Below are positions 2,573 through 11,346 of a DNA stretch of 64,000 nt, one piece after another (within the stretch, counting starts at the first letter, position 1; each line of letters starts with the position of its first letter). The notes below the pieces were generated by a model that saw nothing but the letters and a program-made list of their open reading frames with translations, did no database searches and had not been told where the DNA came from. The translations under genes and the position numbers were made by a program. The DNA is taken from assembly GCA_031362565.1 (NCBI GenBank), contig JANLSU010000132.1, forward strand, positions 1 to 64,000, given 5' to 3'. Source of the DNA: a bacterium (lineage in GTDB: Bacteria; Krumholzibacteriota; Krumholzibacteriia; G020349025).

Positions 2573-3078
2573 ACCGAGGCTGGTGGAGCACCGCGGCGGC
2601 GGCGCTCATGCTCTCGAGCAGTCTGGGTCTGGGCTGCGGGCCGCGCACCGGCGATGCCGCACCGCGCGTGCTCGACGCTCCAGCATTGCAACAACGGGTG
2701 GCCGGCTCGACCGGCCACCCGTTGCTCGTTGTGTTCTGGGCCACGTGGTGCCAGCCGTGTGTCGCCGAGATGCCGGACATGGTCGCCCTCGACCAGGAGT
2801 CGCCGGGCGGATTGCGGATTCTCGCCGTGAGTCTCGATTTCTTCTTGTCGGGCAAATCCACCGAAAAAGTGGTCGGCGACTACCTCCACGCTCACCCAGC
2901 GCCGCTCGAGCACGTCATCTACAGCGGCTCACAGGACGCGATCTTCAGCGCCTTCGAAATGCCCGGCAACATCCCCTACTCGATCCTCTACGACAGCCAG
3001 GGCCACGTGCTCAAACGCTTCACCGGCCAGGCCGCCCCCGCCGACGTTCGCGCCGCCCTCGCAGCATCTCCCGGCTGA
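2554..3078 (+). CDS. TlpA-like thiol-disulfide oxidoreductase, probable lipoprotein
   Basis: FWATWCQPCVAEMP active site, cis-Pro NIPY, lipobox-like LGC; start uncertain. Confidence 0.85.
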   Translation: MEEGVLNRGWWSTAAAALMLSSSLGLGCGPRTGDAAPRVLDAPALQQRVAGSTGHPLLVVFWATWCQPCVAEMPDMVALDQESPGGLRILAVSLDFFLSGKSTEKVVGDYLHAHPAPLEHVIYSGSQDAIFSAFEMPGNIPYSILYDSQGHVLKRFTGQAAPADVRAALAASPG

Positions 3079-8453: not shown

Positions 8454-9173
8454 TCACCACGGAATCGGTTCGAGATCCTGAAAGAAGCCGCCGTTCGGGC
8501 CGTCGCCGGGGAGTGTCGCGAGCCACACGATTGTTTCGGCGCCTTTTTCCGGAGTGCGCGTCGCGGTCGGCCCGCCCATGCGGGTCCGCACCCAACCGGG
8601 GTTCACGGCGTTCACCTTCACATCACCGCGCAGGGTCTTGGCGAGTTTGACGGTCAAAGCGTCGAGTGCCGCCTTCGAGATCGAGTACGCACCGGGGCCT
8701 TCGAGACCGGCTCCAAAGGAACCACAGTCGGACGAGACGTTGACGACCCGGCCGTAGCCGCGCTGCAACATGCCGGGGATGAACGTGCGGCACGTCCACA
8801 AGGGCCCGAAGAAATGCACCGCGAAAGCTTCGTGGTACACCGCGTCCGACTGTTCGAGAACATCGCCGCGCGGATAGATGCCGGCGTTGTTGACGAGCAC
8901 ATCGACGTGCATGCCGGTGGCCCGGATGGTTTCGTGGCACGCCTCGGCCGCACCGGCGCGTGCCACATCGAGCTCGGCGGCGAGCACCCGGGCGGCCGGT
9001 GCCGCTGCTCGCACATCCTGTGCCGCCTGTTCGGCGTCACTGCCACGGCGTGCCGTGACCACGACATCCAAGCCACGGCGCCCCAACTCACAGGCGACGG
9101 CCAGCCCGATACCGCGGTTGGCGCCGGTTACAAGCGCGGTTCGCGGCTCACCACGCCGGCGTTCGCCACTCAT
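8454..9173 (-). CDS. SDR family oxidoreductase (carbonyl reductase-like)
   Basis: TGANRGIG, NNAG, YSISK, NPGWVRTRMGG. Confidence 0.92.
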   Translation of the reverse strand: MSGERRRGEPRTALVTGANRGIGLAVACELGRRGLDVVVTARRGSDAEQAAQDVRAAAPAARVLAAELDVARAGAAEACHETIRATGMHVDVLVNNAGIYPRGDVLEQSDAVYHEAFAVHFFGPLWTCRTFIPGMLQRGYGRVVNVSSDCGSFGAGLEGPGAYSISKAALDALTVKLAKTLRGDVKVNAVNPGWVRTRMGGPTATRTPEKGAETIVWLATLPGDGPNGGFFQDLEPIPW

Positions 9174-10525
9174 TGCACCGCCAACGCGTCGCGTTTTTTC
9201 TTGAGCGCGGCAATCGTCGCGTCATTGCGCTGCCCCGGCGGCAGAGCCTCCGCCTCGTGAACCGCGTCGTCGAGCGTTTTTCGCGCCTTGTCGAGATCGC
9301 CGCGCCCCTTGTAGATGTCGCTGCGCGTCTGCAGGATGCCAAGCCGCCGTGGGCCGTAGGCTTTCGTCAGCGCTCGATCCGACGCCGCAAGCGCGTCGTC
9401 CCACTGGTGCATCACCTTGTAGATCGTCGCCAACCGCGCCGGCGGATTGTAGTCGTCCGGCAGGTCGCGTTCCGAGGCTTGCAGCATGGGAATTGCTCGC
9501 TCGGGTGTCCCCAGGTCGAGACACGCACCCAGACGGTGCGAGTCGAACACGGCGCGCGCGTCCGGGTTCGCAGCGCGTGCCGCCGCGCCATCCAAGAATG
9601 CCGCCCACTGCACCGTATAGTCGTGCACGCCGGTCGAATCCTTGGCATCGTCACGCGCCGAGATCAACGTCTGATAGACGCCCGAGATATCGTCGGCGGC
9701 GATTTCGAGCGCCAGGCCGGTGACGGCGCTGCGGGAGTCGGCTTCGAAAGCCTCGACCCACTCCTTGCGATGCGCGTGTTCGGGCGGCAACTGCAAGGCA
9801 CAGTCGAGTCCCGAAGCTGCGATGCTGGCCATCGAGACACCGCGGCCAACCTTGGGATACGCTTCGCGCGCCAACATTGCGGCGGTCTCGTATTCCTTGC
9901 TCGACGAGAGCGCGAACAGCGCCGATTCCACGGCGCGCGCGTAGTGCGTCCAACCGGCGGGAGCGGCGGCGATCGCTGTACGGTAGGCAGCGGCCGCTTC
10001 GGGATACTTGCCTTCGCCGTACAGAGCGTCGGCCTGCTTCAACGCGACGTCGGCAGCGTCCTTGCCGGTCGTGCCACGCACCAGGGCCTCACCGTCATCG
10101 AGCACGCCACGAATTTGGGCTACCGTCAGGCCGCCCACCCAACGCAACACCAGTTTTTCGGTGGCCGGATCGATGACGAAGAACGACGGCAACGCCGTGA
10201 ACGAAAACTGCGCCTTGAAGGGACCGTTCTGAGCTTTTTCGGAATCGATCGCGAGCCAGACGAACCGTCCGGCTTCGCTCGCGAGGGCTTTGTCCGTGAA
10301 GACATAGGCCCGCATCGAGCGGCACGTGTGTCACCAGGGAGCCCACACGTCGACGAATATGGGCTTGTGCGTGGCCCGAGCTTGTTTCAGAGCGGCCGCG
10401 TAGTTGTCTTCCACGAACGGCAACACGGATTTCGTGGCCGGCTCGGCAACCGCCACGGCTGCAGGCAGTGCGAATGCGGCCGCGACGGCCAGCGCCGCCA
10501 AGCCGCGGTTGAACCGCAGTTTCAT
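9170..10525 (-). CDS. exported thioredoxin-like plus TPR protein, probable selenoprotein (Sec at codon 65, TGA 10333-10331)
   Basis: GGGAGG RBS, ATG 10525, signal peptide, KPIFVDVWAPW-TGA-HTCRSM in frame with ORF 9170..10315; TPR-like helical C-terminus. Confidence 0.85.
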
Positions 10526-10659
10526 CGTTCCTCCCGTCGAACGCCGGGTGATCGGCGGGGCGTGGTCTGCGACACACGAACCGCCCGAAGTGCGATGCCT
10601 GCGAGGCGCCTGCATTGTAGCACTTGCAACTCCAGTCGCCACCGGACGCGGGCTTGCCC

Positions 10660-11346
10660 TCAGCGCGGCGTTTGCCCCGGCTTGAAGACCCGCGACCCGC
10701 CGGTATCGCCAACGTGCAGCTCGTGCACCATCCCCACGAACAGGCCATGGCCGACGACACCGGGTACCGCCGCCACCCGCACCCCGAGGGCACCGGGGTC
10801 GGCGATGCTGCCGAAGTCGACGTCGAGAATGTGGTTGCCGTTGTCGGTCGTGTACGCCGCTCCCGTTCCCTTGTCGTACCGCAACACCGGGCGGCCGCCC
10901 AAGGCTTCCAGCCCACGCCGTGCAACACCCAGCGCGAACGGCAAGAACTCCACCGGCACCGGCTTGTCGAGCCGCAGCGACAACTTCGAAGCATCGACCA
11001 TGACCAGAAACCGCGCCGCCGCGAGCGCGACGATTTTCTCGCGCAGGAGTGCGCCACCGTAGCCTTTGATACACGCGAGCTGGGTGTCGACCTGGTCCGC
11101 ACCATCGATAGCAATGTCGAGCACTGGCTGCTCGTCGAGCGTGGCCATGGGAATGCCGCCGGCTCGCGCCTCGCGCTCGGTTGCAACCGACGTCGCGACA
11201 CCGACAATACGAATCCCTTCGTCGCGGACGCGTTCGGCGAGCACGCGTACCGCCACCAAAGACGTCGATCCGCTGCCCAGCCCCACCGCCATGCCGTTTT
11301 GAATCTGTGCCACGGCCGAACGGGCGGCGATCTCCTTGCGGTCCAA
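10660..11346 (-). CDS. rpiA: ribose-5-phosphate isomerase A
   Basis: GLGSGST, DGADQVD, IKGYGGALLREKIVA, TDNGN, GVVGHGLF. Confidence 0.96.
   Translation of the reverse strand: MDRKEIAARSAVAQIQNGMAVGLGSGSTSLVAVRVLAERVRDEGIRIVGVATSVATEREARAGGIPMATLDEQPVLDIAIDGADQVDTQLACIKGYGGALLREKIVALAAARFLVMVDASKLSLRLDKPVPVEFLPFALGVARRGLEALGGRPVLRYDKGTGAAYTTDNGNHILDVDFGSIADPGALGVRVAAVPGVVGHGLFVGMVHELHVGDTGGSRVFKPGQTPR

Follow-up and report, generated by a model that had tools for sequence, protein, structure and literature searches.

A gene with one in-frame TGA

We analyzed a 64,000-nucleotide (nt) stretch of DNA from a bacterium of the Krumholzibacteriota (contig JANLSU010000132.1; hereafter, the window), concentrating on a minus-strand gene for a thioredoxin (Trx)-fold protein whose C-terminal part resembles tetratricopeptide repeats (TPR). 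From 10525 down to 9170, this strand reads as one frame that ends in a TGA at 9172-9170 and holds a single internal stop, the TGA of codon 65 (10333-10331), in the context DVWAPW*HTCRSM. With that TGA read as selenocysteine (Sec; U), the product has 451 amino acids and carries U in place of the first Cys of a CxxC motif. A preliminary description of the window had proposed that two apparent open reading frames (ORFs) form this one frame, with a ribosome-binding site, signal peptide, Trx domain, and TPR-like helices. Translation of the minus strand, a GGGAGG motif, a hydrophobic N terminus, Pfam matches, and an AlphaFold model all agree with it. The ORF list made with translation table 11 contains only a 381-residue piece beginning at Met71 (9170-10315), and the protein database holds the same piece. 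A public contig that spans the whole stretch, and that may be the source of the DNA itself, differs by one letter, at 10711 and not at the TGA. The apparent internal stop almost certainly encodes Sec at the active site of an exported Trx-TPR protein that the databases have cut in two.

Table 1. Features of the Trx-TPR gene, with positions in the window
Feature	Positions	Strand	Basis
Complete gene with predicted Sec65; terminal TGA as true stop	9170..10525	-	Translation; full-length Cys homologs 48-60% identical
Shine-Dalgarno-like GGGAGG, 4 nt 5' of the ATG	10530..10535	-	Sequence
Probable signal peptide (Sec pathway), residues 1-27: basic n-region, hydrophobic core, AVA before E28	10445..10525	-	By eye
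Trx-fold domain, about residues 33-150, with W-U-H-T-C and invariant Pro113	10076..10429	-	Pfam, PDB sequence hits, structure, conservation
In-frame UGA, predicted selenocysteine 65	10331..10333	-	TGA or TGC/TGT only across 311 family loci
Cys68, resolving cysteine of UxxC	10322..10324	-	100% conserved in 185 proteins
Met71 ATG, false start chosen by gene callers	10313..10315	-	Start of 64 of the best 120 homologs and 45 of the best 150 profile hits
Spacer hairpin, nt +13 to +58, including the GGGC/UGUC-UUCACG-GACA/GCCC stem; loop without G	10276..10321	-	Folding
SECIS-like hairpin GCCGGAC-GGUUC-GUCUGGC; loop (10266-10262) starts 64 nt after the UGA	10255..10273	-	208/209 distinct TGA versus 1/79 Cys sequences
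TPR-like alpha-solenoid, residues 155-451	9173..10063	-	AlphaFold model, fold searches, conservation

Predicted selenocysteine at codon 65

Homologs of the gene alternate between TGA and Cys at this codon, which bears out the Sec assignment of the preliminary description. Across 311 family loci, codon 65 is TGA in 225, TGC in 59, and TGT in 27, and no other codon occurs; these proportions do not represent prevalence, since the pattern used on metagenomes selected TGA and the genome scan selected Cys. Downstream, the frame remains open for at least 340 codons in 157 of the 158 TGA loci whose frame closes within the locus, and 67 more are open to the locus end. None of 214 loci has a stop in the 30 codons upstream of the TGA. 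The protein databases are divided in the same place: of the best 120 homologs, 64 begin precisely at Met71, and the other 56 are complete and contain CxxC; for the best 150 profile hits, the counts are 45 beginning at Met71 and 95 with CxxC.

The genome (100% complete, 5.4 Mb) contains the Sec machinery for which the preliminary description had called, namely, selA, selB, selD (with an in-frame TGA of its own), and a tRNA-Sec with a UCA anticodon; its tRNA-Trp is normal. A second match above the tRNA-Sec gathering score (52.6 bits; G000:C70 109509-109606, L007) was not called by ARAGORN. The gene combines what is expected of a bacterial selenoprotein gene: a UGA aligned to a conserved Cys, the selA/B/C/D set, and a hairpin like a selenocysteine insertion sequence (SECIS) that tracks the UGA, as described below. 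It is nearly certain that residue 65 is Sec, the UGA being read by SelB and tRNA-Sec.

Two readings dispense with Sec. In one, the TGA is a real stop, so that the locus yields a 64-residue exported peptide and a separate 381-residue protein from Met71, or else a pseudogene that the family shares. Met71 is 96% conserved and the 381-residue form is abundant in databases, but Met71 is also conserved in the Cys forms, and the cut would fall inside the Trx fold, between a strand and the active-site helix. Moreover, TAA or TAG never replaces TGA in the 311 loci, the flanks are open, and the tree intermingles Sec and Cys forms, requiring 16 or more changes. We regard a real stop as scarcely credible. 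The same applies to decoding of the UGA as Trp, Gly, or Cys, whether by a variant genetic code or by leaky read-through. A C after TGA makes a leaky stop context, and C follows the TGA in 216 of the 225 loci, where it is also dictated by the His codon. Against such decoding, TGA serves as the terminal stop of this gene and of 28 of 88 complete genes of the TGA type, homologs align Cys rather than Trp at the site, and the genome has the tRNA-Sec (UCA) and normal tRNA-Trp mentioned above.

A distal hairpin that tracks the TGA

In the consensus model, the bacterial SECIS lies 16-37 nt from the UGA (PMC13188914). In the Trx-TPR family, the hairpin that accompanies the TGA is farther away, at roughly double the distance permitted by this rule. 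We described it as seven pairs closing a 5-nt loop with GU at loop positions 2-3, a descriptor that was set on the first loci and then applied to sets fetched later; pooled counts refer to distinct 90-nt sequences, and nucleotides are counted with the U of UGA as 1. In the first set, the mean pair probabilities of the distal stem were 0.95-0.98 in 119 TGA sequences, and the stem was absent from 32 Cys sequences. In the later sets, the hairpin was found in 64/64 TGA and 1/27 Cys sequences from the phylum of G208 (locus L016, Candidatus Eisenbacteria) and in 34/34 TGA and 0/26 Cys sequences from the class of G210 (locus L017, Myxococcus xanthus). In the pooled data, 208 of 209 distinct TGA sequences, but only 1 of 79 Cys sequences (L222), have the 7-bp stem capped by a (G/A)GUYY loop. 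The distance from UGA to loop is 64 nt in 204 of the 208 distinct sequences and 61 nt in the other 4. Of 12 independent pairs on the tree, 11 show the hairpin together with Sec, and none shows the opposite (P ~ 0.001).

Codon choice at this position differs between the two forms. Silent sites are fixed in TGA genes (Val GTC, 58/58; Gly GGA/GGG, 59/59; Arg CGG, 53/53), while same-phylum Cys genes are freer, with Val encoded by GTG in 19 of 26. Substitutions in the stem of TGA genes keep the pairs even when they change the protein (W to R in 4, V to A in 4, and G to R in 3 of 204). Four divergent second copies (L260-L263; 33-37% identity, W-U-Y-S-C) are one codon shorter and retain the hairpin 3 nt earlier, at 61 nt, so that the same arrangement is built from a different spacer sequence. 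The loop is GGUUC in 142, AGUUC in 31, and AGUUU in 29 of 204 family sequences. In the window gene, GGUUC on 7 bp lies within the canonical ranges for bacterial SECIS elements (an apical loop of 3-9 nt with G at position 1 or 2, on a stem of 4-16 bp), and the 29-nt stretch folds at -15.1 kcal/mol, where -7.5 kcal/mol or lower is canonical. Rfam models gave no match in the window between 8000 and 12000 at E values up to 1.

The other candidate selenoprotein genes of the genome provide a comparison. Candidates recognized with Pfam are SelD, two redoxins, a deiodinase-like protein, and two Rdx/SelW proteins, with hairpin loops GGUCU, GGUCC, GGUC, AGUCU, and AGUUU located 17-32 nt from the UGA. 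In the 10.8 million nt searched in this genome, the loop motif was counted 90 times. When TGA sites with the motif at 37 nt or less are ranked by codon usage, the five best are SelD, the two redoxins, and the two Rdx/SelW genes; when the motif lies farther off, the Trx-TPR gene ranks first. With its shared loop type and the top rank of its gene, the distal hairpin looks like the ordinary SelB-binding element of this organism in an unusual place. SelB would very likely bind it through the (G/A)GUYY loop 64 nt after the UGA, and from the computations it is highly probable that both propositions hold together, i.e., that SelB and tRNA-Sec read UGA65 as Sec and that the distal hairpin is the SelB-binding SECIS.

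All six candidates (G000:C11 61378(+), C75 34189(-), C51 64523(+), C115 12967(+), C39 6828(+), and C6 975(+)) have canonical SECIS-like hairpins; both redoxins are exported, one with a FlgD-Ig tail. This list of selenoprotein genes is incomplete, as the codon-score scan missed the Trx-TPR gene at its first threshold. None of the four molybdopterin-domain matches in the genome contains a TGA. Another candidate selenoprotein has a YHS domain and the sequence C-TGA-T-P-C, which is followed by a G-loop hairpin some 20 nt downstream (G000:C18 12733(-), L289). A lipocalin (Blc-type) gene has an in-frame TGA inside its Pfam domain and no SECIS-like hairpin nearby (G000:C44 4753(-), L290); it could be a broken gene or an assembly error.

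The preliminary description had instead placed the SECIS in two hairpins immediately after the UGA. Both can be drawn, and the larger one is part of the minimum free energy (MFE) fold, but the small CCGC-UCGAU-GCGG hairpin forms in only 40 of 209 distinct TGA sequences. Neither of their loops, UCGAU and UUCACG, has the G that is expected at loop position 1 or 2, and the range suggested for a SECIS search, 10330..10270, leaves the Sec-tracking hairpin at 10273-10255 almost wholly outside. These two hairpins are probably not the SECIS. A related alternative is that Sec is inserted and SelB recognizes the long proximal hairpin as a noncanonical element without a loop G, the distal hairpin serving only to pause the ribosome or stabilize the mRNA. 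In favor of this alternative, the loop of the proximal hairpin falls at about +31, a usual distance for a SECIS, and the hairpin covaries and has greater stability in TGA genes; some bacterial SECIS elements also misfit the model according to reviews (PMC13188914). The loop sequence, however, is variable (mostly UUCACG or UUCACC, with a G at nt 34-36 in only 20 of 209 TGA sequences), and the sequence of the hairpin is quite different in the paralogs. In contrast, the distal loop shares its (G/A)GUYY type with the SECIS loops of SelD, the redoxins, and Rdx, and it tracks Sec better (11/12 versus about 9/12 pairs). Recognition of the proximal hairpin by SelB is therefore very improbable.

A predicted spacer hairpin between the UGA and the probable SECIS

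We then considered the region between the UGA and the distal stem, which is predicted to fold into a long hairpin. Relative to synonymous shuffles, the window gene has a folding z score of -2.9; the median is -2.44 in 64 TGA genes (55 below -1.5) versus -0.51 in 26 Cys genes (5 below -1.5). The median MFE of the spacer region is -23.0 kcal/mol in TGA sequences versus -14.3 kcal/mol in Cys sequences, and folding gives a single predicted hairpin spanning 38 nt or more in 207 of 208 TGA but 43 of 79 Cys sequences. In an alignment of 83 rows, 12 of 24 spacer pairs have two-sided changes, a count as high as which was reached in 0 of 500 shuffles. Folding of the spacer leaves 10-15 unpaired nt between the UGA and the distal stem. 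About 11 nt of mRNA are covered by the ribosome, and in Escherichia coli the distance from the UGA to the upper stem of the element is 11 nt (PMC4513850, PMC8659212).

These observations lead us to propose a second architecture for Sec recoding, in which an obligatory spacer hairpin brings an ordinary SelB-binding hairpin, located more than 60 nt from the UGA, close to the site of mRNA entry. The spacer of about 45 nt would probably fold just outside the mRNA channel of the ribosome and loop out the extra distance, and the distal stem would then begin some 10-15 unpaired nt from the UGA, like an ordinary bacterial SECIS. We give this architecture as a whole a probability of roughly 0.55.

A competing explanation shares the reading of UGA65 as Sec and the binding of SelB to the distal hairpin but replaces the looping out: SelB would be tethered to a SECIS at 64 nt, with the spacer incidental or a mere helper. 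GC-rich Cys sequences fold in this region too, with a similar computed linker, which fits simple tethering. As a discriminator we rejected the effective linker, since its medians of 13 nt in TGA and 14 nt in Cys sequences offer no evidence either way. On the other side, TGA genes surpass Cys genes in spacer stability by about 9 kcal/mol, this stability exceeds the synonymous null in 55/64 TGA versus 5/26 Cys genes, and rare AGG codons and fixed CTC codons serve the spacer stem. We consider simple tethering rather unlikely.

Several results count against the looped-out spacer or against the distal hairpin as SECIS, the indecisive linker lengths among them. The register of the spacer is not fixed but slides between lineages (65% of cells are paired in the long helix), as tethering would also allow, and the spacer tracks Sec in only about 9 of the 12 tree pairs. 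The loop, at 64 or 61 nt, is outside the canonical 16-37 nt. The distal stem scarcely covaries: four of its seven pairs never vary, and two-sided changes are confined to one pair, in 3 of 83 rows, so constraint on the protein may explain some of the conservation of this stem. In one TGA locus (L155), the stem is retained but the loop is AGAUC, and no bulged U like U17 of E. coli is evident in the 7-bp stem or in the other stems listed for this genome. The presence of Sec machinery has no power to separate the two forms, as SelB occurs in 200 of 208 genomes of the window's phylum and in four of five Cys carriers. Finally, the neighbors of family loci include no conserved gene that points to a substrate.

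Distribution and exchange of Sec and Cys forms

Within the window's phylum, which uses Sec almost throughout (judged by the C-terminal domain of SelB), the gene was found in 7 of 208 genomes, and all 7 copies have TGA. It is far more common in the phylum of G208 (105 of 206 genomes) and in the class of G210 (248 of 301 sampled genomes), where TGA and stop-free forms are mixed. The loci analyzed from these two groups comprised the 30 best plus 60 picked for both types from the former and the 20 best plus 40 picked from the latter. A TGA-specific pattern recovered at least 120 metagenome loci, whose translated flanks, as far as displayed, match the family. A scan of genome contigs gave 34 Cys forms out of 34, since its seed pattern held Cys, and was used as a control set only. 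The family is large, with 738 clusters at 50% identity (E up to 1e-30).

An unrooted FastTree phylogeny of 185 proteins, built with the site masked, interleaves Sec and Cys forms with at least 16 changes, the direction of which the tree does not give. Single Cys genes nested among Sec genes (L202 and L222) suggest repeated loss of Sec. In L222 (G352:C59), a Cys (TGT) form that is sister to a Sec gene, the distal hairpin is intact; this is probably a recent Sec-to-Cys change, and remnant SECIS cases of this kind are noted in PMC1794560. Our best explanation for these sequence patterns is that the Sec form has been exchanged with the Cys form many times and that the hairpins decay upon exchange.

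Protein architecture and possible function

Pfam places Thioredoxin_7, Thioredoxin_2, and Thioredoxin above cutoff at residues 35-141, whereas TPR models match only below their cutoffs. The AlphaFold model, computed with 80 sequences, shows a Trx fold followed by a helical-repeat solenoid (mean predicted local distance difference test score [pLDDT], 93.2; predicted template modeling score [pTM], 0.88). Its N-terminal part resembles thioredoxin 2lst (structural Z, 15.2; root mean square deviation [rmsd], 2.7 over 126 residues), and the solenoid resembles the TPR domain of LGN (Z, 17.6; rmsd, 5.5 over 287 residues). Neither sequence nor fold searches found a solved structure that covers both domains well. 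The protein has a Trx fold with (U/C)xxC and an invariant Pro113, which we take to be the cis-Pro position. As a PF13098 domain with UxxC it scores 28.3 bits against a cutoff of 27, a broad assignment. By a simple hydrophobicity test, a hydrophobic stretch precedes the domain in most loci of both types (TGA, 178/191; Cys, 55/60) but is present in only 44 of 737 control windows. The solenoid contains residues that are near-invariant in the 185 proteins (D278, D279, R324, D328, R331, Y359, N360, R364, and R393), and their conservation suggests a defined ligand.

Thiol-disulfide exchange is suggested by the motif U/C-H-T/S-C, by the invariant Pro113, and by the closest solved sequences (the C-terminal domain of DsbD and 2kuc, a putative disulfide isomerase). 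From its probable signal peptide, the protein would be located outside the cytoplasm. The protein is probably a periplasmic or surface thiol-disulfide oxidoreductase, acting as reductase or isomerase after export: Sec65 would attack, Cys68 would resolve, and the TPR solenoid would hold specific client proteins or peptides.

It might alternatively be mainly an extracytoplasmic holdase ("chaperedoxin") like CnoX that shields unfolded clients from oxidants, rather than a catalyst with specific clients. CnoX/YbbN (3qou) has the same order of domains, a Trx domain followed by a C-terminal TPR domain; the third-ranked Foldseek match is E. coli YbbN 3qou (E = 7.9e-6), and JGI names several Cys homologs "thioredoxin-like negative regulator of GroEL." But the match to the whole YbbN structure is poor (TM, 0.20; rmsd, 24; 16% identity), and the near-invariant charged and aromatic residues of the solenoid suggest a defined ligand. 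CnoX is about 280 residues long and cytoplasmic, where it hands clients to GroEL and DnaK (PMC8129009), while the Trx-TPR protein has 451 residues, a longer solenoid, Sec, and a signal peptide, the export signal being assigned by the hydrophobicity heuristic given above. A holdase role is unlikely.

Neighboring genes and other features of the window

The preliminary description had coupled the gene to a downstream SDR gene (8454-9173), and the two do overlap by ATGA. This overlap is unique to the window's genome: no SDR homolog follows the gene in any of 129 other family loci with at least 500 nt of downstream DNA, apart from a weak match (E = 6e-7) at the far end of L094. The proposal that the SDR gene belongs to the system is thus unsupported, and both SDR and RpiA were rejected as partners, since neither is conserved among family loci. 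Upstream neighbors are limited to clades and were labeled by eye: an amidohydrolase-like gene occurs in 12 loci (L073, L087, L096, L097, L110, L119, and L120 among others) and a peptidase-like gene in 6 (L094, L098-L100, L104, and L143). In one clade, a 665-residue HExxH protein with no Pfam match precedes the Trx-TPR gene; it is a separate gene in L112 and is fused to Trx-TPR, with no intervening signal peptide, in L142 (TGA; match at 3001-3033) and P0122 (Cys), the latter having the same length as P0123. Four longer forms of the family were found, and two of them are this HExxH fusion. The window's genome has a homolog of the HExxH partner, 63% identical, elsewhere (G000:C126 28031-29932).

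A 629-codon open frame runs antisense to the gene (9173-11062, plus strand) and is probably a shadow of GC-rich codon usage. The window contains a second Trx-fold gene, AhpC/TSA-Redoxin, at 1832-2572 on the plus strand, 7 kb from the selenoprotein gene. A scan for promoters and terminators returned no promoter and six terminator-like sites, with 3.0 expected.

Relation to known selenoproteins

The closest described selenoproteins are the "thiol:disulfide interchange proteins" (PF13098, UxxC; WP_011366075.1; Table 1 of PMC13188914 and the supplement of PMC12013277), which share a UxxC domain of the Trx_2/Trx_7 type followed, by eye, by helical repeats. One deep-Sep entry of that name, with at least 439 characters, has a signal peptide-like start and a long tail, as in the Trx-TPR family (PMC12013277), so an exported UxxC Trx with a helical tail is already in print there. 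The printed representatives are about 190 residues long with no signal peptide and read FNPGUIGC, WFDGULGC, and SSDYUSSC, in contrast to WAPWUHTC here. They lack the PDDYNPPARL and AYGPR motifs of the Trx-TPR family, as judged by eye. The Sec-containing thioredoxin (PF00085, WP_010956703.1) shares WAPW-U-x-x-C, the Trx fold, and the presumed chemistry; unlike the protein here, it is a single domain of about 110 residues with no signal peptide or TPR solenoid. The catalogued Trx7/PDZ (seleno)protein (NF041199) and TsoB (NF045694) have a related Trx7/DsbD-like domain but carry CxxU or UxxxxU motifs and other partner domains, and the protein reaches only 21 of 300 and 30 of 805 required bits, respectively.

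Among the 10 NCBIfam (seleno)protein families listed for this protein, none reaches its cutoff, and 80 family members match only the same broad models (best E, 1e-11). In its accessible portion, a catalogue of 119 selenoprotein entries (PMC13188914, 2026) names no Trx-TPR family, and the term "TPR" is absent from the covered text of that article, of BSepDB (PMC13326102), and of deep-Sep (PMC12013277). Outside subscription journals, our literature search found no description of the family or of a bacterial SECIS about 60 nt away behind a spacer hairpin. Family members may be filed in databases under generic thioredoxin names. Two unnamed "thioredoxin" selenoproteins appear for Anaeromyxobacter dehalogenans in PMC1794560, and one of them may be of the Trx-TPR family.

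The protein is thus a new subfamily of the known UxxC thioredoxin kind, and its architecture is not new. What is unusual is the distant SECIS. The canonical bacterial element (E. coli fdhF type; bSECISearch consensus, as presented in PMC13188914) has its loop 16-37 nt from the UGA, versus 64 (61) nt with a hairpin of about 45 nt in between here. The distal hairpin would be a new variant of the recoding signal, canonical in loop, stem, and energy and noncanonical in distance.

Implications

A UxxC thioredoxin as a type of protein is no surprise, but prediction of bacterial SECIS elements rests on the 16-37 nt distance rule, and according to recent papers, a share of selenoprotein genes escapes it without a known cause; in BSepDB, 87.4% are canonical (PMC13326102). 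If our reading is true, a distant SECIS would be invisible to distance-limited searches, and it could explain part of the 12.6% of catalogued bacterial selenoprotein entries with no canonical SECIS. It would also free the codons next to the redox active site from encoding a SECIS. It is noted in PMC10778597 that a SECIS next to the UGA forces amino acid changes in recombinant selenoproteins. The finding bears on the design of such proteins as well as on gene prediction, since the Trx-TPR family is routinely annotated without its active site. With hundreds of natural sequences and matched Cys controls, the family offers a sharp, testable model for bypassing the rule. If the model is correct, the architecture serves a large, misannotated family of exported selenoenzymes of the Trx-TPR type that extends over at least three lineages of bacteria.

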